The translations under genes were made by a program, and so were the position numbers. This document shows, piece by piece, positions 210-53,600 of a DNA stretch of 64,000 nucleotides. The notes below the pieces were generated by a model. It was not told the origin of the DNA, did no database searches, and worked only from the letters and a program-made list of their open reading frames with translations. How positions within the stretch are numbered: the stretch's first letter is position 1; each line of letters starts with the position of its first letter. The stretch comes from Amoebophrya sp. A120 (lineage: Eukaryota; Protista; Dinoflagellata). Where the stretch lies: assembly GCA_905178155.1 (NCBI GenBank), contig CAJINV010000006.1, positions 2,892,658 through 2,956,657 of the forward strand. The letters run 5' to 3'.

Positions 210-3200
210 GGCATCTCTAGTCGAAGGCGGAGAACCGGAATTAGCGGTGGAGGAGTTTATCGGCGCTTGCATGCGACTATGAGATGATGAGAGCACAAGA
301 ACCTCCTATTTCCCTCATTTCAAGGAGGGCACCATGAGTACCAGGAATAGAAACACCGCTTAGCTACATGGACCTTGTGCAGCATGACAAGTTCTTGTAC
401 TTCCTGCGCCGTTTGATGATGTCCGGGATTTATTGTCATGCAAACTGCGCCAAATGAGTTATTATTATACAGCAACTGGATTTGGCACTTTGCATGACAT
501 CAAATGAGGGCCGCCGTGGGGGAAAGTTGTGCAATCTGATAGCGACTCAAGGGCGAGGCGAAGTCGAAGGATTCGTTTATCGTGCAGTTGTCGGTCATTC
601 AGGCGACGGAGAAAATCGAATTTCTCGGGAAGACCACGGAGAGATGCAAGAGGTGTTCTTGGAATCATGATTTTTTGTTATACTACGTTGTATCAAGTTA
701 CTTAATATTTTTCGCGGCCCGCGCCCTTGACATTCATGCTTATCAGGGGACCGACACCGAGGAAAAATTATGGCCGCTACTTTCTAGTTATGGTGGCGTC
801 AACGACGCTTTTTTCAAGTATGCTGAAAATTTTGATATGCATTTTTTTTCGCATGACGATTCGGGTTCCGAGCACTTGGGCGACACTCGAAGACATCGCG
901 CCCCGTTCCCACAGGGCCTGTGTCTATCAGCTTGGAGGCTGGCCACGTCAAGCTCCTCCGGGGCCCACTTCGTGGAGGGCCCGCCGTGTGGCATTCGCTG
1001 TTGGCGAGGCGCCACGGCGTCCCGAAGTGCACCAAGGGGCGCGCCCCTATGTGTTGGCGATGCGCATGCCCCGCCGCGCGGGCACACTTCGAGCAAGTAG
1101 AGGCGTTGCACAGGTTGGGCAAACCTCGACGATGCCGCGCAACATTGGGCCGCGTTTTTGGTTTCCCATCGATTCGGCGCGCCCACGTTCGTGGCGAAGG
1201 CTTTGCGGATGCGCCCTCCCTGTGCGCGACCGCATAGACATAGTCGGTGGGCCCGCCGCCAATCGCGAGCGCGGCGCCTGTGCGAGTTCAGTCCCCGCGG
1301 CGCCGCCCGCCCGCCGGGCCGCCGTGCAGCCCGCCGAAGCCTTTGCCGGGGTATGCCCCCGCGGCCGCGCAAGCCTGCCCGGCCCCGCGCGACCTGCCAG
1401 GCGACTGCGGGCCAGTAAATGCACTACCAGGAAAGCGTCGGCGGCAAGCCCCGGGGGCTGCCTCCGGAAGGGGTGAAAAGATGCCCCCAAAAAAAACGCG
1501 AAACCCCAGCGAATGATGCCCCTCAAAGAGGTCCCCAAACGTCCCGGAGCAATTGCCCGACGCCGGGCAGAGAATTCTCCGGAAATTGCGCCGAAGGACC
1601 TCTGCCTGTGCTTGGGGTGCCTCGGAAATAAAAGACAACAAAGCTGAAACGGGCCGCGCCCCCCCTGCAGGAGCCGCCGGTAAGTTGGCCCGAGCGCCGC
1701 CGCCAGGGATTTTGCTTCGCGATAGGCGGCACTGGCGCCTGTCAAGGGGGCGCGCACAGATTAGCGAGAGCAAAATGTTGGTGGTGTAGGGTCCACGCGC
1801 TTTGGCGGGCCAGGGTTTCCGGCCGTGTCCGGAAAAGCTGGCCCCCGTCCGGCCTTTTCTTCCAAGGTGCATTTTTTGGCATTATTTTCGCCCACTGCGC
1901 CCAATGTCTTCGCCGCTGGTATGTCGGCAGGGGTTTCCATAGATAGAGGAGAGACGGGGGGCCAACGAGGAAACCTTGGGCGGATGTCGGGAGGCGCCCT
2001 CCCTCCCCGAAATGATCTCAGACAATGCGCGCGGGCCAACACGGCGGGCCTGTTCATGGGCGTCTAGCTTGGCTCCCCTCTCATTGGGCCTGCGCAATCA
2101 AGTGCGCGGCCCGCTTCTGCAGTTTCATTGCCCGAATGCGCACGGGCGGAAGGGCGGCGCATTTCCAAAAAATACGCATAGAAAAATTCTCAGCATACTT
2201 GAGAAAAGCGTCGTTGACCGGGCCATACTAGTACGCAATCATGACGTTTAGTACAAAGAGAATCTTCCGTGTCTTGAGCACTTACTTAATACTGAAGGCA
2301 GAATTTTTGATGTGGCGCGTGTTTCAGATACGGTCTGTGTTTGTTTTTTTGTTTTTAACTGCAAATTTCTGGTCGATGCTTTTCAAGCATGCAAAATGAA
2401 AATCTTTTTATGAAACTTATTCAGGTTCATTGACGTTTCCCGGGGCTTAGTAGACCGCATGGATGTCAGTACCCCCATAATATATTTGTATGCCAGTACA
2501 CGAAGGGCCCTGCCCCTTCCTGTCCTAAAACAAGCGCCACATACAAATCGCCAGTGCATATAAAATGGGCAGTTTGTCTGGCCCCTTCTGGTCCCGCCGG
2601 ACCCTTCCAGCACTGGCCCGGCCGTCAAGTACGGGGCCCCAGTAACTACTGGAGGTCCCGTACGCAACTGGTCCTACGATGCCCCTGCGCCCTCGTTTTA
2701 TATTGCCCTGGTTTGGTCCGACTGCAATACGTGGCTGCCTAGCTAAAACAAAACAGCCACTCAGTGAAAAACATTGAAAAAAGCGCTACGCCTCGGTCTT
2801 CTCCATTTTCAGTAGACTCTGCAGCAAGAGTGCTTTGCTAAAGGAGCGAGAGAATTCTGCTAGCTACCAAAGCGCGCACGCGAAACAAACTCGGCCCTTG
2901 TATGTTTTCGAAGCGCCGCCTGCAAGCGTGCCGCCACCGCCTGCTAACAAAATATCGATCCGCAATAGTTCCTCACCGCGCGCGCGCCGCTAGTTTTTTT
3001 GGTTTAGCTCCCCTTTTCTCCGCTTGTGTCGCTCCTTGTGCGCAGTGCGCGCTCGGCAAGCCTCCCTTTGCGCTCTCCTGTTGTTCCGCGGAGCGATCTT
3101 TTCGCGCGCGGTGGATTGTGGCCTGCTTTGCGTAGCAATTTGCTGCTCTGTCACACTCACCACCAGCTTTTTATTCGCTTTTCTTGGACCATACAACTCC

Positions 3201-12925: not shown

Positions 12926-15900
12926 ATGATGAGCGACCCCCTGGACCACGTTGAGGCAGCAGCGGTCGCCCCCCCGGAGGGGTCGCAAGGTCAACAAATT
13001 CATCCGGGTGCGGCAGTTCTACACCCAGACGAAATTGCTGCTGCCGTGGTTGTATCAAGTGCAAAAATGTCTGGGTCTGGAAGAATGCATGTTTGTCATG
13101 CTTGTCTGGCATGACTCTTAAATCTGTCATGCACTTTTACCCAACAGCTCCATTTTTCTGTGATGCAGAAACGCAGTTCGTCATGCAGAATAGGCAACAC
13201 CTAGAAGCTCAGATGAAACTTGTCATGCTAAGCCAGCACTTGTAGTTGCCTCATCATGAGACGCCGCCCAGCATCACAAGTTTCCAGACCCAGACATTTT
13301 TGCAATTCATAGGTTGCTGATGTGGAGTCCGACACTGAGTCGACGACGAGCTCCGTCTATGCAAAGAAAAAAGTGTTACAGTACGTATACACATTGTGTA
13401 GTTCTTGCAAGACCGGTAAGACAGTAAACCTTTGTCATGCACGAACTGCTTTCGAATTCGAGGCTTGTTTCATATTCACGCGTGTTCTTTTACCATCTCT
13501 GAATGGCAAGTTTTCTCTGTCATGCAGAGATGAAAATTTGTGTCTCTACTGCATGTTGTAATTACAACAAATGTGTACCTACCTGTAAATGCACGTTTTT
13601 CGCGGGATACTGTCGTGGACCAAAATTCCCTACAAGTGGATATGAACTGCAAAAGTATCGTACTCGTATAAATGCAATACAAATTTTCCCAGCATGAGAA
13701 ATGAAATTTGTAATGCTGATTTACCTTAAAAGAAGGATTTGTAATGCAAGACTTGCATTTATACGAATACGATACTTTTGCACAGGATAGTGGACCACCA
13801 CCAACAACTTCATGTCCCCATTATCAAATGCAAAAATGTTTGGGTCTGGAAACTTGTGATGCTGAACTGCGCATGATTGAAGCGCTTCCAATGGCAGCCA
13901 AGCATGACAAGTTTTTGAGAGGCCTGCTGATGCCTAGCACGCATTACAAATTGCGTTTTTGCATGACAAAGAAAGCCTCTGTTTTGCTGCTCATGCAACA
14001 CAGATTTTCCACGAATGCATGACACGCATTACAAGTTCCACTTTTCCAGACCCAGACATTTTTACATTTGATACCCATTCTCGGTGGCGTACAAGGCAAC
14101 AGCCACTCTCTCAACGACACACTGGCGCAGTCCCGCATCGACACGGCGCGATTGCTGGGAAGCCGCGGCTTCGTGTTCCCCCCAGCACCAGGAACATCAA
14201 ATGGGGCAACTGCCAACGTGGTGGACGCAGGACCCGGAGGCGCAAATTTGGCCGGGAATGGCGGGTCCGGGGCACCCACGCCGTTTGGGGCCAACGATTA
14301 TCGTTTTTTCGCGAATAATTCCGCAATGACCCACCTATTACCGGAGCACATTGAGGACGATTTTTTGCGGTTGCAGGCTATGCGAAGAAAAATCTGTTTC
14401 ACTGTGGTGATTTTGCAAGATCTGCATCACAACTTTGTTACACATGACAAAGAAATAAACTTGGCATGCGTGCTTCCTAAAAAGGGAAATAAACACAACT
14501 AGAAATAGAATGTGTTTCATGTGTAGCAAGACAAACACATTTGCGTTGCGTTCTATCATGCATCACGAAGTTTACAGTGAAACAGTTTTTTCTTCCCGCG
14601 ATACAGGCGGAACAGAAAATTTTAGAGACCGTGATGCGCGAGAACAGGCGGCTTGAGGACGAAATGCTGTTCTATCGGGACAGAACCAAGGATCTACTGG
14701 AACGGGAGAAAACGTATGTTAATGTGATTCTGTTTCCACCTTTGAGAAGGTTCAAAGACCAAGCTTTGAATTTCGCTTATATGGTGCTGATGCTGTGCTG
14801 CTGTGTAAGACAGGACATGTCATGTTGTCTCGCATCGTGGTCCACCAACCGCGCGACAACGACAAACACACATGACGAAATAAATCAGGCTTCGCATTTC
14901 CCAGATGGAAAACCAATCGAAGGCGGAAGCGCTGGAATCGTCCCGGGACCAGGTGTATCCAATGTAAATATCGTCCTTGAATCTAGTCGGGAAACTTGTA
15001 AAGTGCTCAGTTGCAAGCCCAGCATGAGAAATTTAATATTCGCGCGGCTTCAAACATATTCTTGTTTTGCTTTCCGCATATGAAACTGCGTTTTTGCATG
15101 ACAAGAAAACGGTCAACATCCCTTCTTGGACACGCAACACAAACTCTTCAGTCATGCGAGACACACACGCCAGCGTGAGTACAAACATTTTATCCTTCGA
15201 GACCACCCAGATCGGTATTTGCAATGCATAAGGTTGCCGACAACTACGGCAAAAAGCTCTTCAAGCTGGAGCGGCATTATCAAATGCAAATATGTCTGGG
15301 TCTGGAAAAGTGCAACGTTTGTCATGCACGTTTTGCATGACGCGTGAGGTCTGTGATGCATGCCCTAGCATCACAGATTCTGTGAGATCTTTTCCATGCC
15401 TTTTCCGCATGGATGAGAAACTGCCTCTCGGCCTTCTTAAAAATAAAAGTGAACAGCTTTATTGGTAATCACGCAACACAGATTTTTGCATGCTTCAGAT
15501 TTAGCATGACAAGTTGTACTCTTCCAGACCCAGACACTTTTACACTTGATAGGCATTTGGCGAAGACGAAATTCGAAAACAAGCAACTGAAAACCGAGAT
15601 GGTAATTGCGCAACAGCATGTGTTATCCTGTGCAAAAGTATCGCACTCGTATACGTATTGCAATCATGCATTATCTTGAGGTAGATCAGCATTTTACAAA
15701 TTTCATTTCTCACGCTGAGGAAATTTGTAAATGCATTTATACGAGTGCGATACCTTTGCAGTGGATACGTGTATGAGCAGCAGGAGTTTTTTGAAAAGCA
15801 CATGACCAGCATGGAGGAGGCGCAGGAAAGAGAAAGCAAGGACAAGAAATATCCTAAGCAAAAACGTCCCCACCCCATAGTCAAGTTGGGAATCTAGCAA

Positions 15901-18900
15901 CACAAATCTCCAAGCTTTGGGGACTGTACATGACAAGTTTCCCTCTGCAGTGTAGTTCTGATTGGCAAGATGAGCCGCATGAGAAAGCCACTTTCACATC
16001 CTGTTTACAGCATTACAAATTCCAAAACACGATTGGAAATCGCTCTCGTGGACGAGCTGCGCATTCCAAATGTTCCTGTTACTGCGCATTTGCATGACAA
16101 CTCTGGTGTGGGGACGTTTTTACTCAGGACAAAAAACTTCTGAAGGAGCAAGCGGAGAAGGCGGAGCAAGAAAAGCAGAAGCTCGACGCGGAAAAACAAG
16201 TTCTCTCCACTGACCTCGTTCTGATCGACAAGAAAAAGAAGGAGGAAATCCTAGCGATGAAAAAGGACTGCGTATCAAAGTGAAAATTCCCCACCCCATA
16301 TTCAAAAGACAACTTGTGTTGCTGGATTTCTGTACACAAATGAACTTTGTACTGCAGCAAGAGCTTGCGCTTGTCGGCATATTCTATCTGAGCCCATTTG
16401 GGTACGCATCCGGCAAGCAGCTGAGCATGCGAAACAAGTCTGACATGGGCGAAATCGCATGACAGACTCGCTGCACAATGCGCCGCATGGGTGCCGTTTG
16501 CCTTGTACGCAAGACAAAGCTGATTCGTGGTCACAAATCAGCATCACAAATTTCCTTTTCGATATGGGCAGGGGGGATTTTTCCTTACGATACTGCGAGG
16601 ACCGGCTAGAGACCTTGACCAAGGAACTCACCGCCGAAAAGACGGCAGAGCTCGAAACCCTGAAAGCAGAACTCACATTATGCTATGTAAAAACGTCGCC
16701 ACGAACCCATAGTCAAGTTGGGGAATCGGCTAGACAAATCCACAAGTTTTGGCTGTTTTGCATGACAGATTTGGAGTCGTAGTGTAGTGCTATTTGCGGT
16801 AGTTTAGCAGCGTCACAGATCTGGGCCATCATACTGATTGGAGCATGACAAATTCCAAAACACGACTAGAAAGCGCTTCGCATGGGGCTCCGGATGAGAA
16901 ACATGCTTAGCATGCAGATTTGCATCGCAACTACCAACTATGGGATGGCGACGTTTTTAAATACGATACATACACAAACTCGCAGAAGAGACCACTCGAG
17001 CGGAAGCGCAGCTCGCGGAGGCGGAGCAGGCACACGCGGCCCACCTCGAGAAGTTGACAACGGAACACGAGCAAGCCAAGCAGGAGGGGATCGAAGCAGC
17101 GCAGGCGCAGTGCGAGGAGCGGTTGGCCGGGGAAAGGGAGGTATTCAGAAGAGAAAAGGAGAAACTGCAAGAAGACCTGATCGAGGAAAAACAGAACGCA
17201 GACATAAAAATCAACGCACTGCAAGTGGAACTGACCGAGAAGAATCAGAATTTTGACCAAGCGTCCATCGAAGTCGAGCAACAGATGCTACAGTTCCAAG
17301 AATATTAAATGCAACAGCATCGTACTAGTATACTACAAATCGCATGACAAATCTCCTCAGCATGAGAAATAGAATTTTGTAATGCGGACTCAACTTGAGA
17401 AAGAAACTTGTAATGCATGAATGCGATTAGAAGTACGACTACGATACTTTTGCACAGGATAAAGAACAGGTGCAGCAGTTGCAGGACGAGAAGCAGTTTT
17501 TGCAAACGGACTTTGACCAGTTGAAGTTAGACTTGGAAAAAGTAGCAAATGCAAAAATGTCTGGGTCTGGGAGATTGCGATATATGTCATGCCAGTCTGG
17601 CATGACTCTGAACTCTGTGTTGCATGGCCGCGAAGAGCTCCGCCTCCCTGTCATGCAAAAACGCAGTTTGTCATGCGGAATAATACGCAACTCAGAACCA
17701 TGAAACAAATTTGTCATGCTTGGCAGCGCATCACAGTGAATTCACTATTCCCTTTCTTGCGTCACAAGTTTCCAGACCCAGATCGATATTTGCAATGCAT
17801 AGAAAGCCGAGTCCGACAATGCGCAGGAAAAGATTCTGTTGGAGAACGAGTTTGAGCAAAAGCTGGAGCGGTCCCTGGGCGAGGAGCGGAAAAAGCTGGA
17901 ACAAAAGGTATGACCTGCTCAAACGTTACAATCTCAAACGTTACAATAGAATCTGGATTTTGTCTTGCATGAAGAGCATGAGGAACGTATGTGGAGTTGC
18001 GCCTTTCGCAATACAAATTTTGCCGGATATCGATGGGGTTTTAGGTGCCGAAACTTGTTGTAATGCGCAAACCTATGGGAATACGGTAGATCATGCACTT
18101 CCTGCATCACAGATTTCCATATTCTATTCGTAACGTTTGAGATTGTAACAGCTGAGCAAGTTATAAAAGGTAAGCCAGATTGAGTCGGAGTTCATGCAGC
18201 AGTTTGAGATGAAAGAGCATATGAACTGCAAAAGTATCGTACTCGTATAAACGCATTACAAATTTCCTGAGCATGAGAAATCAAATTTGTAATGCGGATA
18301 TACGTTTAGAAAAAAATTTGTAATGCATGATTGCAATTACTACGAGTGCGATACTTTTGCACAGGATAGAGCAGGAAGCGCTGGACCTGCAGAAGGAGCT
18401 GGATTTGGTCAACAAGGAGTGCAACGAGCTGAAGGAAAAGGTCGATAGCATGGAGGTCGACAAAACGAAAGAGTTCACCCATATGGAAGTGTCAGGATTG
18501 AAATCGTCAAAGTTGAAAAGATTTGTAATGCATAAAACCGATACCAGATGGAAGCCCACTTATCAAGCGCCGCGTGACAAATTTTCCGAGCACGGGAATC
18601 AATCCAAGTTTTCATGCTGTTTCGGCACAGGAGACAGCTTTTGTCATGCTACTTTAGCAGCTCTGTCCCAAACCCTAGACAGGCTCACAATCGGCCTCAC
18701 TTGCCATCCCTGCAACACAGGCACCTCATGCTTTGCATTTTATGCATTGCAAGTTATTTCAACTTTGTTGATTTCAAACCTGACGCTTCCATAGCCCAGG
18801 AAGACCTCGAAAAGCGGATCGCGGAGGAAAAAGAACAGTGGGAAATTATCCCGAGCAAAAACGTCTCCACCCCATACCCATTTTGTGAAAATAGCGAAGT

Positions 18901-21900
18901 TTCTCTGTGCTTTATTTTGGTCTTTTCCAGTACATAAACAAACACAAAGTCAAGATAGGGAATCTTCTGTTAGACAAATCCGCAAGTTTTGGCTGTCGCG
19001 CATGACAAGTTTGGGCTCGTAGTGTTAGTCGTAGTCCTATTGTGATTTAGCTAGTGCAACCGCGTCACAACTCGGTCACCTTATTCTGATTCCAGCATGA
19101 CAAAGTCCCTAATAGCATTAGAGAATAGTCCTCATGGGGCTGCGCACGAGAAATGTTTTAGACTTGCAAACTTGCATGACAACTCTGGGATGGGGACGTT
19201 TTTCCACAGGATAGAAATGAGTCGGGCCATGGAGGACCAGGCGAAGCGGGACAACCTCGAGCACCTGGAACTGAAGCACAGCGGCGAGATTCACCAGCTG
19301 CAGCAAGAATTGCAGCGCGCGAAGGAGTATCAAATGCAAACCATGTCTGGGTCTGGAAGGATGCAGAGTTCTTTGTCATGCTTCGATCTGGCATGACTGA
19401 GGAGTATGGTGATGCGTGTCCCAAGAAGAGACCCATGCTCGTGCCATGCAAAAAGAAACGCAGTTTGTCATGCGGAAGCCGGAACATATAGGCACGAAAA
19501 TTGTACTTCCCATGCGTGGCTGTGCATTACAGAGCACTCACTAATATTTCCAACTCAGCATTACAAGTTTCCAGACCCAGACATAGATATTTGCAATGCA
19601 TAAGGAGGAAGGGGCCGCGAAAGTGTCGCAGTTGGAGCAGCAATATCCTGTGCAAAAGTATCGTACTCGTATATAGTGCAAGCCTTGCATGACAAATCTT
19701 TTTCTTAAGGTAAATCCACATTACAAATTTTATTTCTCATGCTGAAAATTTGTAATGCATTTGTACGAGTGCGATACTTTTGCAATTCATAAGCAACTCG
19801 ATTCCCTGCGCCACGAGCGGGAAGCGCAGGAGAGGGCGTGGCAAGCGGATGCCCAAGCGTCGCTCGAGCGAGAGGTGGCTGCGGAAGTTGCGAAGGTGAA
19901 TCAACAGCACGAGGAACTCCTCACACGAACTCTGGCCGAAGAACGAGAGCAGACGCAGCAGCGCGTCACCGCCTATGCATTGCAAGAGTATCGTACTCGT
20001 ATAAATGCATTACAAATTTCCTCAGCATGAGAAAGAAAATTTGTAGTGCTCATGTACGCTAAGGAAACGCATGATTGCAATACGAGTCCGATACTTTTGC
20101 ACAGGATACCGCCGAGCTGACGGAAAAACTCGACGCAGAGCTAAACGAGAAGCAGCAGCAGCTGACGCTATCGCACGAAAAAAGTGTTACAGTTACACAT
20201 TGTGTTGCAAGACCGGCAACACAGACAACCTTTCTCATGCAGGAAATGCTTGGGAATGGGAGCCTCGTTTCCTTCCTGTTTTCCCTTATGATCTTCGCAT
20301 TACAAGTTTTCTCTGCCACACAGAGAAAATTTGTGATGCAGAAACTCCAACAAATGTGTGACTGTAACACTTTTTTCTCATGATAGACGCAGGCAGTGCA
20401 GTACTACGAACTGGCCTACAACCAGAATCTTATCAAATGTAAAAATGTCTGGGTCTGGAAAGTTGGAACTTGTGATGCTAACTTTGGACTCTAAAAAAAT
20501 CTGTATTGCATGACCAGCAAGAGGAGCCACATTTGTGCTACGCGAGGAGGGCATTTGTCATGCGGAAATGGCATCAGGAAGCTTTCCAAAAATCTGTGAT
20601 GCTGGGTCATGCATTACAAGCATCATGGGCCATGCCAGACAAGCATGACAAGCCTTCCATTCTTCCAGACCCAGACATTTTTACACTTGATAAATCTGGA
20701 GCTGCAGCAAAAGCTGCAGGAAGCGACGGAGGGTTCGGAAAAGCAAAAATTGGATACGGAAACAACGGTGCGCGAACTGACAGCACAGTGCGAGCGGGAG
20801 AAGCAGGACTTGGAAGTATTACAATGAAAAATGCCCCCGCCCCCGAACTTGGGAGGATTTGTATTGCAAACCTTTCCAAATGAAACATTCGCCCTCTTGC
20901 ATCTATCAGCATCACAGGTTTCCAATCGTGAATAGCAAAAATTTGTCTTGCAAAAGATCCCAGCAAGAGCGGCGCCTGTCATGGAAGCGATGCGATACAC
21001 ACCTAGACTCTGCATCAGAAAGATTCATACTCCTTTCATGCATGACAAAACGTTTTTATTTGGAAACTTCGCATCACAAATTTTTGCAATTTCAGGGGTG
21101 GGGGCGGGCATTTTTCATTGTAATAGGAAGCAAGGCTGCGGCACGAGCTGGGGGAGAAACACGCCGAGCAGCTCGAAAAACATACCAAATGCAAAAATGT
21201 CTGGGTCTGGAAACTTGTAATGCTAAACGTGAATGGAAGACGCACTGCAGTGCGCAGCTATGCATGACAACTTTTTTGGCTGCCATGTCTTACGTATTAC
21301 GCATGGCAAACTGCGTTTTTGCATGACAGGCAAGAGGGCCTTTTCGCGCCTATGCAACACAGATTCTCGAGCCATGCCAGACAAGCATGACAAACTTCCA
21401 TTCTTCCAGACCCAGACATATTTCCATTTGATAAAACAGGCCCAGGAACAACAAATCGCCCTCCAAGAACAGCAACGGCGTGATGCGGAAGCAACGAGGG
21501 CTAGTGCCACGACTCTAACTCCCGAGCAGCGACAGGAGCTGGAGGCGGAGCTGCGTGCGGACTTTGAACAGCGCACAGACGCTATTCGGGCCGAAGAGAG
21601 GGAACGGGTCGAAAAAGAAGTCGAAGCGAGGGTGCGCGAGGAAGTGGAAAATAGTACAATGCGGACGCGGCAGGCCGAAGAGCTTGAGGCACTACAGCAG
21701 AAGTTGCACCATGCGGAGCACATGCAGCACATGCTGGAAGGCGAAAAGCACGAGTTGTTGGAGAAATTTGAACGACAAAACGCGGAAAGCCTGTCACCCA
21801 ACAGCAAGCAGGAATCTTTGTTGCAAACTCTGCAGCAGCAGTTCGACCAGGAGAAGGACGAGCTGCTGAAGCAGGCACAGTATCCTGTGCAAAAGTATCT

Positions 21901-24900
21901 GGTACTCGTATTGCAATCATGCATATACAAATCTTGGTCTTAAGGTAAATCAGCATTACAAATTTTATTTCGCATGCTGAGGGAATCTGTCGTGCGATTT
22001 CTACTAGTACGATACTTTTGCAATGCATACGCAGCGGGACTTGCTCGTGAGGGAAGAAGAATGCGAGAAGAAACTCGAGGACCTCCGACGGCAATTTTCG
22101 GAGGAAATGAGTGCGATAACCAAAAATGCTGGCCAGCAGCAGGACGCTGACCGCCTCGCGGACAACCAAGAAACCTTGGCCAGGGTTCAAAGAGAAAACG
22201 CCGTCTTGGTGGAGCAGAAGGAACAGCTCGAGACCGCGTTGCGCGACCTGGAAGGCTCCGCCGAGGCTAGAATTGCGGCCGTCGAGAAGGAAAAAGAGGA
22301 AGCGATTCGGGTCGCGAAAAACCGGAGCCCGGCACGGGATGAAAGTGGTGCCTCGGCCGGTATCGCAAGGAAAAACCTTCCCTCCCCATACTCAACCGGA
22401 GATTTGTGTAGCATGATTTGTGACCACAAATCCTTTTGTCATGCTAGAGGGGAAGAGATGCGTACTGTAGTGCTAGCATGCGTAGGAAAGCCTAGCGTCT
22501 TCAGCATGACAGGAAGCAACCGGAAACGGGAAACAGCATGACCAATTGCCTACAAACGAGGGAGCAACTGCGTCTCTTGGCCTTTTAGCAATACAAGTCG
22601 ATATGTGTACTCAACTACAGCAACACAAAATTTGTTTTCGATATCGGGAGGGGGGATTTTTCCTCACAATAGCCGGACTGGCTGCTGCTTCTAGCAGCAC
22701 TTCCAACCCCTCCGTTATTGCGCAATTGGAGCAGCAGCTGCAGGAGCAAGAGCAGGAGAATATGCATTGCAAATATCGATCTGGGTCTGGAAGATTAAAA
22801 CTTGTCATGCTAAAATTTGAACGATGCAAAAATCTGTGTTGCGTAAGTACCAAAAGCTGTCCGGTTTTGACCAAGTCGAGAGGGAGTTTCTGACGCAGGA
22901 AAGGCAGGATAGAAACCTCAAAGAATCTGTCATGCTGGATCTCGCATTCCAGACATCATGGGCCATGGAAAACCTGCATGACAAGTCTTGCAACGTTCCA
23001 GACATCCAGGGATAATATTTGCTTTTGATAGAGAACCAGAAGCTGCGAACTGCAGCGAAAACGCTATTGGATATCAAAGTGAAAAAAGCCCCCGCCACAT
23101 ATTGAAAAGATAATTTGTGTTGCTGGATTTGTGTACACAAAGGAACTCTGTATTGCAGCAAGAGCTTGTCTGCATATTCTAAGCCCATTTGGGTACTACA
23201 CATCCCGCTAGTAGCTGAGCATGCGAAACAAGTCTGACATAGGCGAAAACGCATGACAGACTCGCGGCACAATGCGCCACATGGTTGCCGTTTGCCTAAT
23301 GTACGCAAGACAAACCTGATCTGTGGTCACAAATCAGCATCAGAAATTTCCTTTTCGATATGGGGAGGGGGGATTTTTCCTCGCGATATTGGAGGAGAAC
23401 GACGAGCTGAAAGAGCGGGAGCTTCCCGACAACGAACAGATCCAAAAGCTGTACCATCGCAACAAATCAAAGCAGGAGGAGATCGAACTGCTTCGGCTCA
23501 CGATCCAGACCAAAGAAGAGGCCCTGCAATTAACGCTGGAAGAAACGACAAAGTTGCAGTATGCCTCGCTCAGACCGATTTTATAAAAATCTCAACTGTT
23601 GTTCCATACATAGAATCTGGATTTTGTCATCTCGCATGAGCAGCATGAGTACTAAACATATTAGAGAGTCACGACCACCTTGCGCTCATTTATTCCGCAA
23701 TACAAATTCATTGAGCCGAATATTTTTATCCGGCAGTTCTTTGGAGCCCTCGAGCTTGTCATGCGCAATTACTTATCCTGTGCTGGCGGTAGGCTAGATC
23801 GCGCGCTTCTATTATTTTGCATCTTCACAGACCTCCACTTCTATGTCTAGATAGTCTGTAACGTTCGAGAAGATTGTTGTAACATCACTTCTGAGCAGGG
23901 TATATGCAACCGAAGCTCGAGGAGCTGGAAACCGAGAAGAAAACGAACGAGGCGAAAATCGCGCAACTGCGACGCGTATGCATTGCAAATATGTCTGAGT
24001 CTGGAAGGGTGGAACTTGTCCTGCTAAATCCGAATCATGCAAAAATCTGTGTTGCATGAGTGCCAAAAGCTGTCCACTGTCAACCAAGTTGGGAGGGAGT
24101 TTCTCATGCAGGATAGGCATGACAAAGCGAAAGACCTCACAGAGTCTGTGTCATGCTAGGTCCCGCATTCCAGACGAGGCCTCATTGGTCATGGAAAACC
24201 TGCATGACAAGTTTAGACTCTTCCAGACCGAGACACATTTGCATTTCATAACGCGAGTACGCAGATCTGCTGGAGTCTGTATCCAGTGCAAAAGTTGTAT
24301 CGTGCTCGTACTCAACATTGCATTCATGCATTACAAATCTAGTTGTTACAGTAATAAATCCGCATTACAAATTCCAATCTGTAATGCTGAGCCAATTTGT
24401 ATTGCGGTGAAAGAATACTAGTACGATAGTACTTCTGCAAATCATAGTCTGTGCAAGGAAGCAACACGACCTCGACGGACGGAGGACAGACTGCACAGCA
24501 GGGTGGTACTATAGTGAGTATCAAAGTATGTGTGTGCAATGAAGCACTTCTATAGATACTCTTTGTGATGACGACGGGTTACATGGTGGAAGAGAATGAA
24601 TATCGATATTTATTATTTTGCAACGAAATTCCGACTACGTTTTTAATATTTTATTATCGAAATAAAAATCCAGACCTCGTCCAGGAGACGCTGGCGTTTC
24701 AACTCCGCAACAAGTCTATCAAATGTAAAAATGTCTGGGTCTGGAAGAATGCAACTTGTGATGCTAAATCTGAAGCATGCAAAAATCTGTGTTGCATGAT
24801 TACCAAAAGTCGTCCAGTTTTGACCAAGTCGGGCGGGAGTTTCTCATGCAGGATAGGCACGATAGAGATCGCACAGAATCTGTCATGCTAGATGCTGTAT

Positions 24901-26087
24901 TCCAGACCTCGTGGGTCATGGAAAACCTGCACTACAAATCGCGCACTCTTCCAGACCCAGACATTTTTGGATTTGATAAAGTCCAAGGAACTCGAGCACA
25001 TGGAAAAACTGAACAAGAACACGATCGACAAGCAGTATATGCATTGCAAACATCGATCTGGGTCTGGAAGGTAGTTGCTCCTGCCCCTGCTCAGTACAAC
25101 GCAGAATGTGTACTATCTCACCCCTCACCATTGTGAAGGATGGAGATTGATGCAAGTCCTGGGTGGAGCAATGCATAGGTTGTGAAGGATGCAGGTGCAT
25201 AGCGCTGCCTCCTTGTTTTGTCGTGCACCACAAACTGGAATTTTAGCTCACGCACGACTTGCAGTTGCACAGCCGCTCGGAGTAAATTATTTTTCACGCG
25301 TGGCTGCGTCCTGAAGTCAGCTTTTCATGTAAGAACAGCATCACAAGTTTCCAGACCAGAGACAGAGAGTTTATTGCAGTGGATACAGTATGTAACGAAC
25401 ATTCTGCTGAAATTCATTAACGCCGACCCGGATACGGACACCGAGACGCGTATGGAAGCGTCAGGATTGAAATCATCAAAGTTGAAATAAGTAGTTTGTG
25501 ATGCATAAAATGCTAGACGCAAAGTGCCTTTCTTGCCGAGCAGGCAACTGAGGCCGATTATAAGCCTGCGTGGGGTCGTCGTGTGAGATAAAGCTGCTAA
25601 AATAGCATGACAAAAGCAGTCTTCTCTGCTCAAACAGCATGACAAACTGGATTTCCATGCTGCCTTTTTTTTGTCATGCGCCACTTGCAAACTGGGCTCC
25701 AGCTGGTATCGCTTTTTTGCATTACAGAGTATTTCAACTTTGACGATTTCGATCCTGACACCCTGATAACGGGACTGGAGATGGGCCGTTTGCTAGCGGA
25801 GTCGTTGGATTGGGACCGGGCAAAGTTCGCAAACCTGCTAAAGGTATGCAAAAAAAAAATTGTTTCACTGTGAACTTGTGATGCAGAAATAAATGGAACA
25901 CAGAACTATTTGTCTTGCTACACGACCTGCATAGAGCATTGGAGTTTCAAGTGTGTTTTTCCCTATGGGAAATGCGCGCAAGGTAGGTCTTCAGTGTCAT
26001 GTGTAACAAACTTGTGATGCAGATCTTGCAAAAGCATCACGTTGAAACAGTTTTTTCGTACGATAAGAGGCGACGGGGTCCTACTGA
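12926..26087 (+). CDS. Golgin-like long coiled-coil protein with C-terminal GRAB/GRIP-type domain (GMAP-210/Rud3-like); about 38 exons
   Basis: ATG 12926 to TGA 26085-26087. The frame stays open across 35 TIR elements removed with one 5-bp repeat copy; two decayed introns (~14715, ~24519) are unresolved. E/K/Q/L-rich heptad exons are followed by TIDKQYVTNILLKFINAD...LEMGRLLAESLDWDRAK, which resembles GRAB/GRIP Golgi-targeting motifs. Confidence 0.8.
13822..14073. mobile_element. Introner family A, representative (one of the most abundant; ~250-300 bp)
   Basis: TIR TATCAAATGCAAAAATGT(C/T)TGGGTCTGGAA...TTCCAGACCCAGACATTTTTACATTTGATA; direct repeat CCCAT/CCCAT. Other copies include 13053, 15278, 17543, 19328, 20431, 21183, 22761, 23977, 24717, 30245, 40094, 50784, 52975, 53705 and 54433. 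Confidence 0.95.
14379..14603. mobile_element. Introner family D, representative (~200-225 bp)
   Basis: TIR core AAAA(A/T)CTGTTTCACTGT; repeat CAGGC/CAGGC. Others at 25845, 51405, 52109, 58738, 59191, 61310 and 63515. Confidence 0.93.
16273..16592. mobile_element. Introner family F, representative (~310-340 bp)
   Basis: TIR core GAAAAATCCCCCCTCCCCATAT; repeat CTGCG/CTGCG. Others at 22361, 23072, 26409, 29879, 41112, 42094, 47045, 48720, 49111, 55659, 57075, 58350 and 61580. Confidence 0.95.
17909..18165. mobile_element. Introner family I, representative (~255 bp)
   Basis: TIR with tandem GTTACAATCTCAAACGTTAC units; repeat AAAGG/AAAGG. Others at 10535 and (decayed) 23560. Confidence 0.9.
18220..18368. 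mobile_element. Introner family B, representative (~135-190 bp)
   Basis: TIR TATnnnnTGCAAAAGTATCGTACTCGTA; repeat GAGCA/GAGCA. Other copies include 8111, 10170, 10342, 13641, 15624, 17303, 19644, 19974, 21881, 24280, 43554, 54686, 56050 and 63323, in both orientations. Confidence 0.95.
20169..20385. mobile_element. Introner family H, representative (~210-250 bp)
   Basis: TIR core GAAAAAAGTGTTACAGT; repeat GACGC/GACGC. Near-identical copy at 51864; others at 13358, 44099 and 45038. Confidence 0.95.
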
Positions 26088-27340
26088 GTTTGATTGGTTC
26101 ATATGTAAAAATTCCGCGGTACGTTGTGTTAGCAGATGATCCGAGGTTGTAGTATTGATGGGGACAGTCCCGCTTTAGTACTTCTTTACAACCAATTGAT
26201 TCATTGTTGCACCCTGCGGCGCTGCTAGCGTGGTCGCAGCAATCTTCCTTCCGGGAGAACAAGAAGAAGATGTTTGGGGGGAGCAAGACAGAAAACTTTG
26301 TTGACACGACCAAGCGTGAGCTCACTGTTGTAGCGAAGATGATGAACGAACGACCAGATGAGTTGTACACGAAGCAAGAAGCAGAACCATGAAGCACCAA
26401 AAATGAAGTATCACGAGGAAAAATCCCCCCTCCCCATATCAAAAGGAAGTTTCTGATGCTGGATATCCGTATACAAATCAAATTTGTCTTGCAGTAGAGG
26501 GCACCAGGCTCCAACCAAGCCTGAGGAGAGAGCTTTTGGCCTAGGGGCTTAGCATGCGAGACGTCTATGCTGCAGGCCCAACAGCATCACAAACCGCCTG
26601 CATAATGCGGCAGAGCCTGTGGAGTTGTCTTTTTGCAAGACAGACGTGATTTGTGGTCTCAAATCAGCAAGACAAATTTCCGGAAGCATACCTTTCCGAT
26701 ATGGGGAGGGGGGATTTTCCCTCTCAATATGAAAATGAACACTACGATAAACCACGACCCCCGAGGACGTCGTGGTCCTCTTCTAAGGCGGCACATCTGT
26801 CAGCTACCTAATATGAGAGTGCACAACTCCCCCTCCCCCTCATTTGCAGGGCAGGAGCAGCAATACAAACACCAACACACTTGGAGCCTGTGCATGACAA
26901 GTTCACGGGCCGAGTGCAGTACTGTTTGGGCTCCTTCTGAAATTTGTCATGCAAACAGTTTCACAAGGCACCAAATGACTTGGGGACTTTGCGTCACATC
27001 TGAGGGGGAGGGGGATTTCGGGTTGTGCGCAACTGTTATACTCAACACTTACCCCCGGAAGAAGATCATGTTCAGACGTCGAACAGAAAAAAAGAAATAG
27101 AGCAACCGTGGTTAAGTAGACTCGTTTAGCACGAAAGAAAAGTGAAAATAAACCAAACTATTTTCATTTCAATCTATCGACTTCTTCTTTCTTTGCCTCT
27201 GTGCTTCACAGCTCGGTCGTCCTCTGTAGGGGAAGAACGTCTTGCCTACTAAGTGAAAATGTCGTTATTTCGGTAGCTTTTACCTCGTGCAAAATTGATA
27301 AACAGCGACAAAGTACTAGAATAGTGACGTTGCGTCTACG

Positions 27341-27740
27341 CTTGCGACAAGAAGGACAACTCGGTGACGATGCTTCTACGCTTGCGAAAAGAACTACAAC
27401 TCGGTGGCTGTGCTTCTCGTACGAAAAGACCTACAACTCGGTGGCTTTGCGTCTCTTGCGAAAAGAACTACAACTCGGTGGCTATGCTTCTCGTACGAAA
27501 AGACCTACAACTCGGTGGCTTTGCGTCTCTTGCGAAAAGACCTACAACTCGGTGGCTTTGCGTCTCTTGCGAAAAGACCTACAACTCGGTGGCTTTGCTT
27601 CTCGTTCGAAAAGAACTCCTCGGTGGCTGTGCTTCTCGTGCGAAAAGAACTCCTCGGTGGCGTTGCGTCTCTTGCGAAAAGAACTGCTCGGTGGCGTTGC
27701 GTCTCTTGCGAAAAGAACTGCTCGGTGGCTGTGCTTCTTT
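27341..27740. repeat. Minisatellite of about 11 units (mostly 37 bp, then 34 bp)
   Basis: Unit CGAAAAGA(A/C)CTACAACTCGGTGGCT.TGC.TCTC.T.; the last four units are 3 bp shorter. Confidence 0.95.
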
Positions 27741-44600: not shown

Positions 44601-47600
44601 GTCATGAAAAACGTGCATGACAAACGTTGCACTTTTCCAGACCCAGACATAGTTGCATTTGATAACAACGTCGTCTTCGCGAATCCGGATTCTGGTGGAG
44701 TCGTTCGAAGCCTACGACTATCAAATGCAAATTATATGTCTGTGTCTGGAAGAGGAAGGATGCAAGTTTGTCATGCTTGGCCGGTCATACAGATAAGTCT
44801 GTGATGCTTTTTGCGCTACAACGGGACTTGTTTGTCATGCAAAGAGGCCATTTGTCATGCGGTTAACGCTAGACATAGCCACCCAGAAACTTGTCATGCG
44901 CAGCTCCGCAAAAACACAGGTTCCGTCTCATTCGGACATTAGCATGACAACTTTCCACACCCAGACCACATATTTGCAATGCATAGCGACGATTTGGATC
45001 AGGAAGTGTTCGAGAACAGTGGTCTCGCGCGGCTGCGTATGCAACGAAAAAAATGTTACTAGTATGAATATACACATTGTGTTGCAGACCAAGCAAGACA
45101 GACAGCCTGTCTCATGCTGGAACGGCTTGTGAGCCTCGTTGCATACGTGTTTTCCTTTAGGATCTCTGCATTGCAATTTTTCTCTGCAGCAACCAATGCA
45201 GAGCAAGTTTGTGTTGCAGAAGCCACTACAAGAAGTGTGTAACTGTATTGAAACTCTTTTTTCGTGTGACACTGCACTCCGGCATGTTCCCTCTCAGCAG
45301 CGGCATTCGGAAACTGTTTGGCCTACCAGAATCCTCGCTGCCAATGCTCGGGCAATCGCAGTGCCGGTCGGCGGGGCCGCAGCTGGATACCGACCTGCAG
45401 ACAGCAAGTGGCTCTTGTGCCGAACCGCAAGACCACAGAGGGGACGACGACACCCGGCTGGGCATTGCGCAACCTGCTTCCGGAGCAGATGAAAAACCAA
45501 CAGCGTTGCTGCATGATGATGTTGAACAACCCGCACCAGGTGCAACGAAAATGCCCAGTAATCCTTCGGCCTCGAAACGAACAAGAAATTCTGCACGCAG
45601 GGGGCTCGCGTCTGTCCAGCCACGTATAGATTTGCTTCGGTTTCTTGATGTACGTTCGAATTACAGTGGTGCTATTAAGCTGCTAATACTAAAAAGATTT
45701 TTCGAAATGCTATTTTTATACGGAGGGACGACCAGTACCACAGATGTAGCGGTCTTCTAGCTACTATTCGTTAGATGCCATTAAGATGCACATCCATGAC
45801 AGCACGCAACTTTTAGTTTTACAATTACATCGTGTTGATAAGTATTAGAGCTACTACTTCCACCGAGAGTAGATGTAGAAGTTGAAAATCCTGGAGAAAA
45901 TAAACTTGTACACCAGCATCGCTTTCGATGAGCCGTTTGCGGGATCGGTTTTTCCAGAAACGGCGCGGTGAGGCCTACGACTATCTTCTCGAGAAAAAAC
46001 GCCGGCTGGAGGCGAAAAAACAGAAACAGCGACAACTCATTGCGGCGAGGGCGGGCACTACAGATCATTTGCCCCCTATGGAAGCGTCAGGTTTGAAATC
46101 GACAAAGTTGAATATAATTTGTGATGCACAAAATGGATGCCAGTTGCAACCCAGCTTCCAAGTGGCGCATGACAAATTTGGGTAGAGCCGAAATCCAATT
46201 TGTCACGCTGTTTGGGTAAGGAAGACGCCACTTGTCATGCTATTTTAGCAGCTCAGTTTCTCTTTCTACCCCTCAACAGGCTTACAATCTGCCTCACTTG
46301 CCTACTGTGCAAGACAGGCATTTTCTGCGTTGCATTTTATGCATGACAATCTATTTCAACTTTGACGAGATTTCAATCCTGGCACTCCCATACCCCCGGC
46401 AGCGTCGACTTTCGAGGTCGTGCAGGAAGTGTACGAGATATGAGAGTGCACAAGAACTTGAACTCCCCCTCCCCCTCAGTTGTCATGCAAAATGCCAAAT
46501 CCACTAAATAATTCTGTCGGTTTGCACGATTCGCATCACAAGTTTCGGGACCTCCACGCAAGACAGCACCACAGTCTTGTGTGAATTTTTTTGTCATGCA
46601 AAACGAAAATATCCTGCATGTGCATTCGATATCGATTCCCGCCGATGCTTGTATTGCTGTTCATGCCGCAGCCGCAGCACAAATGGAACGACGAGGGGGA
46701 GTTGTGCACTCTCATACGAACCTAGAGTGATTGCGAAGTTTCTGAAGAAATTAACGGGGATGCAGACACTATGCAAGAAAAAAACAGTGTAAGTGTATAC
46801 TTATTTGAAGGAATTATAGCATGACAAGTTTGCTCTGCATGACACACAAAACCTATCATGCTTAGCTAGTATCAGTGAAAACACGTACGAGGAAAAGAGC
46901 CTCTGATACATGTGTCTAGCATGACAGGTGATAAGTGTTTTACATACGTCTGCAACACAAAGTTACACTTACACAGTTTTTTTTCTTGCATAGACACTGG
47001 ACACGCGGGACCACTCGCTGTGGAATCGGGCGGATTTTTACCGCTATTGTGAGGAAAAATCCCCATACTCAAAGTCGAAACTTGTGATGCTAATTTGTGG
47101 CCACAAATCAGCTTTGTCTTGCCTATAGGCGAAGGGGAGCCGTGATCCGCGTTCCACAGCCAGTCTGTCATGCGCTTTCGACTACTGCGAACCCCTGTGC
47201 TATAGCTAATTGCTAGCTGTGTTCTGCATACCCAATGAACAGGCTTCGAAATAAATGCCGCCAAGCATTTTCTGCAACACAAATCTGATAAATTGTGCGC
47301 GCAAATCCAGCATCAGGAGCTTCCTTCTGATATCTCTGGGGACGAGGGGGGATTTTTTTTTTGATAGCCGCCGATCTTTGTACACACCGCACGAGTTCCC
47401 CTTGCTCTACTCGGAGGGGCTTTCCGCTACCGCACCCACAACAGAGCTGCAACAAAGGAGGATGGAGAACGGCAGCGTGGTAAACAGGACCGTAATATGC
47501 ATTGCAAATGTAGTGTCTGGGTCTGGAAGGACGCAAGGTTTGTCATGCTTGTCTAGCATGACTGAAGAGTTTGTGACGCGTGTCCACGAAGAGACCGTTT

Positions 47601-50600: not shown

Positions 50601-53600
50601 TTGTGCAGTGTCATAGCTCATCTTTCTCTTCCAAGTGTCGCCGAAAGACAATCAGCCGACGCCGGACAAGGTGATCCACACCATGATGCTCATCCGCGTT
50701 CTGCGGCTCTGGAAGTACACCCAAGCCGCGCTCTCCGAGTCCCCCCGGTTTCGCCGCTTCGGGTTCGTCCTCGACCGCTTCTATATCAAATGCAAAAGTG
50801 TCTGGGTCTGGAAACTTGTGATGCTGAGTGGCGTAGCATGAGGAGGCCACAAGTGCTGGCTCAGCATGACAAGTTCCTGAGCTTCTAGGTGTTCTGCTTA
50901 TTCTGCATGACAAATTGCGTCTCCGCATGACAGAAAAATGCGGCTCTTGGGCAACGTGCATGACAGATTTAAGAGTCATGCCAGACAAGCATGACAAACA
51001 TGCATTCTTCCAGACCCAGACATTTTTACATTTGATATTCTACCAGCTGCGTCGGCCGCTCTTGTTCGGTTCCATTCTGTTCATATCAACTGCAAATATC
51101 CCTCGGATGTCTGGAAAACAAATGCGAGGTTTGTCATGCTAGGCTAGCAGGATTCTCAAGTCTGTCATGCGCGTTAGTACCCAAAAGCCCTTTTTTTCTG
51201 TGATGCAGAGTCGCAGTTTGTCATGCAGAATCAATAGGCAACAGCAACACTTAGAAGCTCAGAAGCTTGTCATGCTGTTGAGCCATCATTTGTGGTGCAC
51301 TCATGCTACGTCACTGAGCATTACGAGTTTCCAGACATCATCCAGGGATATTTGCATTTGATAGTTCGTCATGGCCTGCTACTTCATGTCCTTTCTGATC
51401 ACCTTATCCCACGAAAAAACTGTTTCACTGTGATGATTTTGCAAGATCTGCATCACAAGTTTGTTACACATGACACAGAAAATTTGCCATGCGCGCTTTC
51501 AAAGGGAAAACCCCGCTAAAGAGTCAAGGTCTTGCAGGTGTAGCAAGCCAAATAGTTCTGTGTTCCATTCTATGCATCACAAGTTCACAGTGAAACAGTT
51601 TTTCCTTGCGATATACCTCGCAAGTGAAACAGTCGGTGATGGATGGCGATTACTTTTATGCACTGCAAAAGCATCGTACTATAGTATGAATTGCATTACA
51701 AATTAGGTCAGCATGAAAAAATAAAATTTGTCATGCGAAATTACCTAAAAAACCAGATTTGTCGTGCTGGTCTGGCATGTATAGGAGTACGATACTTTCC
51801 CACAGGATAACTTTGCTTACATGGCGAAAATCAACCCCTCGTTTTCCATTCTGGACTACTTTTTATCGCAAGAAAAAAGTGTTACAGTTACACATTGTGT
51901 TGCAAGACCGGCAACACAGGCAACCTTTCTCATGCAGGAAATGCTTGGGAGCCTCGTTTCCTTCCTGTTTTCCCTTATAATTTTCGCATTACAAGTTTTC
52001 TGTGCCACACAGAGAAAATTTGTGATGCAGAAACTCCAACAAATGTGTAACTGTAACACTTTTTTCTGGTCATACTTTTCCGCGACTTTTTACTCCTTTT
52101 TCACCATATATCCCACGAAAAAACTGTTTCACTGATGTGGTGATTTAGCAATATCTGCATCACAACACAAGTTTGTTACACACGACGAGACAGAAAACTT
52201 GCCATGCGCGCTTCCCAAGGGAAAAACACGGTTGAAACTCGAATGTTCTATGCAGGTGTAGCAAGACAAACACTTTGGCGTTTCGTTTTCTGCATCACAA
52301 GTTCACAGTGAAGCAGTTTTTTCTTGCGATACCATCGCGCAGATGACCTCATTCGACCGCTGGCTTACGGGCATCATCCGCCCGATGGGTGAAGTATGGA
52401 TTGCAAATATGTCTTGGTCTGGAAACTTGTGATGCAAATCTGTGAATCGTGGGCGCACTACAATATGCAGCTAAGCATGACAAGTTTTTGCACGTGCCAT
52501 GTGCTTCGTTTTCTGCATGGCAAAGTGCGTTGTTCCATGACAGGCAGGAGGTCCCGTTCCTGCTTACGCCTCACAGATCCAAGAGTTATGCCAGACAAGC
52601 ATGACAAGTCCTGCATTCTTCCATACCCAGACATTTTTGCAATGCATAGGAAGTTCAGTTCACATTGGCGATTCTGCTCATGCTTGTGGTTGTGATTATT
52701 CAGTTTGGCCTAGTGAACAACATCACCGGGCTGTTCGTCGCCTACGTCATCAAGTCGGGTGAAGTATGAACTGCAATAGTAGATCTGATACTCGTACTAA
52801 TTCTTGCAGTCATGCATTACAAATCTTTTCCTTCAGGTAAATCCGCATTACAAATTTTATTTCTCATGCTGAGAAAATTTGTAATGCATTTACACAAGTA
52901 AGTACTACTATCGGATACTTTTGCAATTCATAAGAAGAACAGCGCGATCAGAATCGCTTCGTCCGCGAGGCCAGTATCAAATGCAAAAATGTCTGGGTCT
53001 GGAAGAGTGCAAGTTTGCCATGCTTGTCTGGCACGACTCGCGAATCTGTGTTGCATAGGCACGAAAAAGGAGCGGCCCTCTTTTTACCTGTCATGCAAAA
53101 ATGCAGTTTGCCATGCGGAATACGGAAGACATAGCAGCCAAAAAATTTGTCATGCATAGCTGCGTATTGCAGTGCGTCTATCCTTCACCTTTAGCATTAC
53201 AAGTTTCCAGACCCAGACATGTTTGCAGTCCATAGCCAGGAGGCAGGCCCGATTGAAGCTGAAGGCGATGACGCGGATGCGCGAACTAATCGACGCAGTG
53301 TCCGTTCCGGCGGTGGTATCAAATGCAAATGTAATCGTCCCTGGAGGTCTGGAACTGGATGGGTGCAGCTTGTAATGCATCGTCCCCCAGATTTTTGTCC
53401 AAAAATTTTATAAAATCTGTTTTGCGGGGGGTAGCACAAGATCCTGTTCTAAAACACGGCTTTTTCTCAAAACGGCATATGTAGTTCTGGACGAAAGCCC
53501 GAACTAAAAAAGGTAACAAGCTGTCATGCTACATTACCCTGCATTCCAACATGACAAACTTAAACTTGTGCACTCCTCCACCCGGCGTCCAGGGATGTTT

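Follow-up and report, generated by a model that had tools for sequence, protein, structure and literature searches.

The question raised by the locus described here is how a protein-coding gene tolerates a 348-nt insertion inside a domain and at which bases the insertion is cut out of the transcript. The locus is located in a 64,000-nt stretch of the genome of the dinoflagellate Amoebophrya sp. A120 (contig CAJINV010000006.1, positions 2,892,658 to 2,956,657 of the forward strand; this whole stretch is referred to as the window, and its first base is position 1). Two copies of CAGTA at 25033-25037 and 25386-25390 bracket, as read from the sequence, an element at 25038-25385, an introner within the gene of the Golgi protein P0002. 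This element is absent from the transcripts together with exactly one CAGTA copy, and its removal is exact and position-specific. The best explanation is a fixed cut 1 base upstream of the element and 4 bases downstream of it (−1/+4), predicted to be set by the element ends and not by GT-AG, and a probability of roughly 0.68 is given to this explanation. The features of the locus are as follows:

12926..26084, + strand, host gene P0002, encoding a 1283-amino-acid (aa) coiled-coil protein with a C-terminal GRAB domain; stop codon at 26085-26087
24983..25036, + strand, upstream exon (...KELEHMEKLNKNTIDKQ and the first base of the Tyr codon), in frame ...NTIDKQ
25033..25037, + strand, upstream copy CAGTA of the 5-bp target-site duplication (TSD); under the −1/+4 rule, bases 1-4 would stay in the mRNA and 25037 would be the first intron base
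25037..25389, + strand, intron according to the −1/+4 rule, 353 nt, with the ends AT...GT; the length is shown, the placement is taken over from other elements
25038..25385, + strand, introner element, 348 nt, with TAT...ATA termini
25038..25070, + strand, left terminal inverted repeat including the subterminal TCTGGGTCTGGAAG motif
25349..25385, + strand, right terminal inverted repeat (TTCCAGACC ... TTGCAGTGGATA)
25386..25390, + strand, downstream copy CAGTA; under the −1/+4 rule, bases 1-4 would be intronic and 25390 would be the first exon base
25390..25449, + strand, downstream exon (remainder of the Tyr codon, followed by VTNILLKFINADPDTDTET...)

Removal of the element with one copy of the duplication

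A 907-nt transcript-like contig joins position 25032 to position 25386 and skips 353 nt, which is 348 + 5. Nine further introns are missing from this contig, and one of these is of the ordinary GT-AG type and has no duplication. Among the joints listed, which came from contigs of two samples and two regions, 25 of 25 element joints skipped the element + 5. Set aside from these were the repeat-induced joints 50827->52619 and 51904->52040, the opposite-strand joint 19686->22010, and a row at 16764 that "goes back 25." Public sequencing runs labeled with the same organism contain about 0.3 of the words of 24400-26400, approximately the exon fraction estimated from the joints, and the runs behind the contigs were accepted as RNA because only exon sequence is present in these contigs, from which an ordinary GT-AG intron is also missing. 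From three raw RNA runs under the same species label, only 4, 26, and 18 reads matched a 20-kb stretch in part; all of these fell in repeats and were silent on the joints.

The annotated protein agrees with the contig. Across the element site it reads ...IDKQY|VTNILLKF... and contains IDKQYVTNILLKF and TIDKQYVTNILL, and the Tyr residue at the junction of intron 25037-25389 falls inside the GRAB domain PF10375 (residues 1228-1270 of P0002, E value of 8e-6, 25.9 bits with a cutoff of 26). A first-pass annotation of the sequence had proposed this scarless loss of one TSD copy, and contig, protein, and listed joints bear it out. It had also pointed to an alternative in which only N-TAT...ATA-N, the element + 2, would be cut out. 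This alternative would read CAG TAG TAT and place an in-frame TAG stop into the GRAB domain (KQ*YVT), just as had been stated. The stop codon argument is valid but seldom applicable, since a stop was gained under the element + 2 model in only 2 of 84 elements. The element + 2 model reproduced 0 of the 37 annotated junctions of P0002, and the three additional nucleotides that it would leave at introner sites were found at none of the listed joints. Its 5′ boundary, N|TAT, would be correct; we infer that the true 3′ boundary is 4 nt past ATA and not 1 nt.

Of the 37 introns of P0002 in the window, 35 are TAT...ATA elements. Scarless removal of the cataloged elements reproduced 27 of the 37 junction peptides; the ten other introns were eight elements missed by the scan for elements and two GT-AG introns. 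Altogether, scarless removal reproduced three public A120 proteins (P0002, P0006, and part of P0004) across 92 elements, plus two elements in a compound case. The proteins encoded in the window are public entries of the type "unnamed protein product [Amoebophrya sp. A120]" with 97 to 100% identity. Removal of 18 cataloged elements led to a single open frame of 473 aa at 49402-55434, and three proteins with conserved domains were open only after element removal. The element at 26409-26729, which follows the GRAB gene's stop codon, was skipped by the same contig, again as element + 5 and with base 5 originating from the downstream copy. Because of its position past the stop codon, this skip serves no reading frame of the GRAB gene. 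The element sits either in the 3′ untranslated region or ahead of a further open frame at 26346-27097.

Two compound sites behaved similarly. At 54433-54835, two head-to-tail elements of different families share one duplication (three copies of CCGGT, with zero bases between elements and copies), and the annotated protein was reproduced when both elements and two CCGGT copies were removed, either with a zero-length exon or by a single removal of 408 nt. At 43042-43495, the annotated compound intron consists of two scarless elements and a short micro-exon, and the second element starts with TGT instead of TAT.

Position of the cut

Removal of the element + 5 leaves the position of the cut within the duplication to be determined. 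When the two copies of a duplication differ, the position can be read from the copy that supplies each retained base, as had been suggested in the first-pass annotation with the mismatched repeats at 25451 and 25845. Both repeats were confirmed and the test works. Every coordinate named in the first-pass annotation proved correct. The elements concerned, together with two for which an undamaged peptide had been predicted, are:

25451..25768, + strand, next introner, duplication ACGCG/ACGGG; the upstream C (base 4) is kept in the mRNA, so that the cut is after base 4 or 5
25845..26065, + strand, introner, duplication AAAGG/AGAGG; the upstream A (base 2) is kept in the mRNA
45625..45912, + strand, introner, duplication CCACG/CCAGC; the annotated protein (...QPPSL...) is reproduced only by a cut after base 4
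52109..52331, + strand, introner in a channel-like gene, duplication CCATA/CCATC; the downstream C (base 5) is found in transcript contigs, and the FTIAQ motif, taken for part of a pore helix in the first-pass annotation, is preserved as predicted (...FFTIAQMTSF...)
278..542, + strand, introner with GCGAC on both sides; judged from the letters alone, scarless removal would preserve CMRLKG, as had been claimed

At the level of the contig nucleotides, mismatches at base 1 (4 elements), base 2 (2 elements), and base 4 (2 elements) all showed the upstream variant, and mismatches at base 5 (4 elements) all showed the downstream variant. No other letters occurred at mismatch positions in the contigs. 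Nonsynonymous mismatches in the annotated proteins extended this test; the base-4 mismatches of the elements at 39719 and 41483 are synonymous in the annotated frame and uninformative. In total, 32 of the 95 supported elements were informative, and all 32 permit a cut after base 4 of the duplicate. Cuts after base 0, 1, 2, 3, or 5 were excluded by 24, 13, 7, 5, and 10 elements, respectively. The element at 45625 permits only a cut after base 4, and the element at 16679 (CACAT/CATAC) permits only a cut after base 3 or 4. In a simulation with independent, uniformly distributed cuts, a common position survived in 0.0002 of the trials. The earlier proposal that the cut lies within the repeats without a fixed dinucleotide stands with respect to the ends, which vary under any placement, and is sharpened: one fixed position, after base 4, fits all informative elements.

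The intron is likely N + TAT...ATA + NNNN, in which base 5 of the upstream duplicate and bases 1-4 of the downstream duplicate enclose the element. Elements with perfect duplicates, 25037-25389 included, should follow the same −1/+4 junction. There, the placement is taken over from other elements because the CAGTA duplicate is perfect (the 353-nt joint slides 6). No placement inside the CAGTA repeat yields GT...AG; the joint is listed with the ends CA..TA and would have AT..GT under the rule. Both orientations of elements within one family obey the same rule in the sense of the transcript, and therefore the signal should be the symmetric TAT/ATA ends, with the polarity coming from the transcript, outside the element. 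Elements with one change in TAT or ATA, which have TAG, TAC, or TGT starts or ACA ends (17543, 41827, 21183, 43287, 15850, 45038, and 45625), show an unchanged site of removal in the annotation.

Intron ends and ordinary introns

The first base of 92 introns was G in 30, A in 25, C in 19, and T in 18 cases. The last two bases spanned all 16 dinucleotides, with AG in 3 of 92, and the first exon base was a purine in 52 of 92. When an element is flanked by G on both sides, G-TAT...ATA-G offers GT...AG at the element + 2; yet the junction was the element + 5 in 9 of 9 such elements and in addition at 24280 (GTCTG). The element introns ignore GT-AG even where it is available.

Ordinary introns exist in the same genes. 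In P0002 and P0006 (12926-59130), only 5 of 95 annotated introns are of the GT-AG type and not flanked by a duplication (14714, 24518, 42060, 55410, and 57790), and their 5′ sites read GTATG, GTAAA, or GTAAT. The intron at 24505-24673 is a GT-AG intron with two 5′ sites 12 nt apart, 24505/24506 in the contig of run X5 and 24518 in the annotation. From 24519, it reads TATCAAAGT, which resembles the start of the element at 23072, and it may be a decayed introner now using GT-AG.

The U12-type consensus consists of the 5′ site RTATCCTT and the branch motif TCCTTAAC near the 3′ end. Splicing of the U12 type was rejected as an explanation: some ends read TATCCT (6 of the 92 introns), but within the last 49 nt of all 92 introns the branch motif occurred 0 times exactly and 1 time with one mismatch. 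Minor small nuclear RNAs (snRNAs) are reported as missing in A120 in the accessible text of the genome paper (PMC7789003).

Elements in the window

The window was scanned for TAT..ATA with a 5-nt repeat (up to 1 mismatch) and inverted termini matching in at least 11 of 16 positions. This yielded 88 matches, compared to 0 to 3 per shuffle in 20 block 2-mer shuffles, and 56 of the 88 had a perfect 5-nt repeat. Removal of 87 scanned elements deleted 22,395 of the 64,000 bases (35% of the window). The elements comprise about a dozen families of 134 to 403 nt and have TAT(C/G), about 7 variable bases, and a run of A in common. In a sequence logo of 89 elements, T, A, and T were present in 87 to 88 of 89, the 1 to 2 deviants stemming from two elements entered one base off, and A was found at positions 11 to 13 in 71, 71, and 81 of the 89. 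A 5-nt duplication was present at all 95 supported elements. Terminal inverted repeats and TSDs of constant length are features that the elements share with nonautonomous DNA transposons of the miniature inverted-repeat type (MITEs).

The element at 25038-25385 starts with TATGCATTGCAAACATCGATCTGGGTCTGGAAGG and ends with TTATTGCAGTGGATA. As inverted repeats, its termini have 11 of 16 matching bases, the start reading TATGCATTGCAAACA. The subterminal arms GGTCTGGAA and TTCCAGACC at 25061-25069 and 25349-25357 form a perfect pair of 9 nt with 100% complementarity. A subterminal 14-mer of the element occurs 48 times in the window, with 0.5 occurrences expected. Compared by BLAST with the remaining 88 elements in the window, the element gave no match of at least 80 bits, but its termini are like those of the largest family. 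Having no close relative within the window, the element would count as one of the "singleton" introners of Farhat 2021.

Other features of the window were noted. The first 9 kb of the window gave no scan match, although the element at 278-542, with termini below the threshold of the scan, is located there. The G+C content is 0.33 at 8001-10000 and 0.43 to 0.63 elsewhere in the window. A tandem array of about 11 units of 34 to 37 nt occupies 27339-27754, in an introner-free stretch. The gene P0006 (49402-59130; 1586 aa and 58 introns in the window) has exons down to 25 to 30 nt, and no precomputed Pfam family was found for it.

Proposed mechanism and alternatives

A 5-bp duplication combined with cuts at −1 and +4 would remove the element + 5 and restore any insertion site to the base, and this restoration would need no splice signals in the target. 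Such restoration would account for the ability of the elements to fill coding exons (35% of the window). We infer removal at the RNA level because the elements are present in the assembly and absent from the transcripts, and because the asymmetry of the cut follows the transcript. The predicted agent is the spliceosome of the organism. The invariant UAU(G/C) would then take positions +2 to +5 in a 5′ splice site similar to the GTATG/GTAAK of the five ordinary introns, with a free position +1. At the 3′ site, the distance from the paired element ends would count rather than an AG. Nearly all spliceosomal proteins are reported for A120 and U1 snRNA was not found, according to the accessible part of the genome paper (PMC7789003).

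Evaluation of this explanation needs to consider a number of observations that weigh against it. That the runs behind the contigs are RNA is a guess. Among the 95 supported elements, 63 are uninformative with respect to the cut, and the contigs alone (12 informative elements) gave P = 0.068 for a common cut. Most of the statistical weight is on the annotated proteins, and the placement of their junctions could reflect conventions of the annotators' aligner. All genes in the window are located on the + strand, so that a flip of the rule with the direction of the gene could not be observed. A 7-nt micro-exon lies between the elements 58738-58935 and 58948-59125, and at this one place scarless removal did not reproduce the annotated P0006. 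The model at 58737-59130 reads ...GHSRDHLPGSF... instead of the scarless prediction ...GHSRDHYYPDRF... and corresponds to the scarless product minus 2 nt. This misfit may be the artifact of an aligner unable to place an exon of 7 nt or a real exception, and in the model, the last 21 residues are possibly frameshifted through the annotation.

Positions 4 to 7 of the termini pair in only 45 to 64% of the elements. The terminal mismatches comprise 38 G:U and 61 A:C, the wrong direction for selection on a hairpin, although these are probably fixed differences between families and uninformative. A fold of the intron with its flanks pairs the ends, with a z score of only −1.81. Neither the terminal pairing counts nor the intron fold thus provided positive evidence of an RNA hairpin under selection.

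The fixed cut may alternatively be made by a nonspliceosomal route that measures from the paired ends as in Euglena and releases the intron as a circle. This is a minority possibility, roughly one chance in a handful. The missing conservation of the first intron base, the rare AG ends, and the neglect of an AG beside the element would all fit such a route, as would the U1 snRNA not found in the accessible text on A120 (PMC7789003) and the unequal fixed spacers, which recall the Euglena code 5′-N3CDG...CH'GN5-6|R (PMC12501133, as far as accessible). On the other hand, the invariant TAT(G/C) is similar to what the GTATG-type 5′ sites of ordinary introns in the same genes have at positions +2 to +5, and the reported set of spliceosomal proteins is nearly complete (PMC7789003, same part of the text). 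No back-joint of the circle type was present at element ends among the joints listed, from runs that were aimed at linear joints.

Slightly less likely still is a scarless removal in which each intron has its own cut inside the duplication, at the least unfavorable site available to the splicing machinery, with the common position 4 being a feature of the few informative cases. The many unplaceable elements and the P value of the contigs alone leave room for this. The legend of Fig. 3 in Farhat 2021 gives the splice sites a variable position with respect to the hairpin (PMC7789003, accessible text), and the published tables, as far as accessible, give gt, gc, ga, at, and many noncanonical ends for A120 families. 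The annotated dinucleotides are no evidence of real variation, however, because the aligner places an ambiguous joint. Moreover, position 4 was allowed by 32 of 32 informative elements, every other position was excluded at least 5 times, and this agreement has the probability of 0.0002 under uniform cuts.

Very improbable is the third alternative, that the joined forms are not spliced RNA but result from template switching, from empty-site alleles of another strain, or from excision of DNA similar to the internal eliminated sequences of ciliates. Template switching by reverse transcriptase is classically associated with short direct repeats around a hairpin, and the RNA status of the runs was guessed; against this, the genes are open only after removal, the contig also drops a repeat-free GT-AG intron, the assembly and the best-matching runs retain the elements (share of 0.68 versus 0.3), and a symmetric DNA reaction on inverted repeats gives no reason for an asymmetry in the sense of the transcript in both orientations. 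Homology-driven copy choice by a polymerase or reverse transcriptase, which would retain one whole copy, is excluded because bases 1 to 4 of one copy and base 5 of the other are kept.

Comparison with known systems

The fixed −1/+4 cut at the element ends, which remains the preferred explanation, has to be compared with what is published for the same genome. According to the accessible text of Farhat 2021 (BMC Biol 19:1, PMC7789003), A120 introners have inverted repeats of 8 to 20 nt starting from TAT, with about 7 variable bases and at least 3 A, and direct repeats of 3 to 5 nt overlap the borders. The ends are described as noncanonical, no transposase is reported, and removal is supported by RNA. 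The TAT inverted repeats, the direct repeats, and the noncanonical borders were all found here. Strain A25 is different, with repeats that begin with TTA and direct repeats in another location. The element class, the 5-bp repeats, the noncanonical borders, and removal from RNA are already published for the A120 genome, and the finding in its original wording is known. The difference concerns the border, which the paper draws as variable and the position of which "remains unknown" in the accessible legend of Fig. 3 (PMC7789003); one position fits in the window. The Gozashti 2025 supplement, in its searched part, sorts A120 families into "co-opt both," "co-opt 5' carry 3'," or "carry 5' co-opt 3'," with no common rule. 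None of the three end motifs of the window was present in the searched parts of the Farhat 2021 and Gozashti 2025 supplements, a search that left two Gozashti files outside.

Splicing out an introner with one TSD copy is an established principle (10.1101/2020.10.14.339549; PMC11282704; Gozashti 2025 supplement; all in their accessible parts). A fixed −1/+4 junction was not found in the searchable literature, with subscription papers, including the printed Roy et al. 2023, and supplement figures outside this scope, and as far as these searches show, the fixed cut position is a new refinement. The GT-AG rule is not followed by more than 60% of the introns in Amoebophrya, and the genome paper names their recognition as an open question. 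To this, the window adds a simple and checkable rule for the cut position. If the −1/+4 rule is true, annotation would become deterministic, without arbitrary borders and with recovery of micro-exons, and the machinery to be sought would be one that counts its distances from the ends of the element.

Introners of Micromonas, Aureococcus, Symbiodinium, and Polarella are likewise elements with terminal inverted repeats, and their splicing removes the element with one TSD copy. The splice sites are within the TSD and/or the element end, which makes the insertion harmless (10.1101/2020.10.14.339549, accessible part). Those introners use GT/GC/GA...AG supplied by the TSD or the target, for instance, GHNN or AGGH (same source and part), whereas A120 needs no particular dinucleotide. 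Borders of the GY/GA...AG type do not characterize the introns of the window, with G at +1 in 30 of 92 and AG in 3 of 92. Introners of this GT/GC/GA...AG type were reportedly treated by Huff et al. in 2016. The tunicate Fritillaria borealis has a mass of MITE-derived non-GT-AG introns from elements with terminal inverted repeats and TSDs, which an adapted spliceosome removes (PMC11282704; PMC13326754; accessible parts). Fritillaria prefers AG-AC and AG-AT according to the same parts, whereas the 3′ ends in A120 show all 16 dinucleotides.

A further parallel is formed by the nonconventional introns of Euglena, for which the experimentally defined code 5′-N3CDG...CH'GN5-6|R is given in the accessible text of Nomura et al. 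(2025, PNAS, PMC12501133; review PMC11282704). In Euglena and likely also in A120, unequal fixed spacers counted from a short pairing motif set the borders; in both cases, TSD-like repeats are present and a MITE origin is suspected. The motifs and spacers differ, being CAG/CTG with 3 and 5-6 nt in Euglena and TAT/ATA with 1 and 4 nt in A120. Euglena prefers a purine as first exon base, which A120 has in 52 of 92 introns, and circular products and genetic proof are, in these accessible texts, at hand for Euglena only. The Euglena signature itself is not present in the A120 introns, which end as N-TAT...ATA-NNNN, and only the principle of the fixed spacer is common to both. That A120 uses such a ruler for most of its introns, cutting 1 base 5′ of UAU and 4 bases 3′ of AUA at any bases and skipping an adjacent AG, is about evenly balanced between true and false. 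If it is true, every target would be restored to the base owing to the 5-bp duplication made by the transposase, and element and host would constitute a self-erasing insertion system and, after Euglena, a second, independent splicing code defined by spacers.

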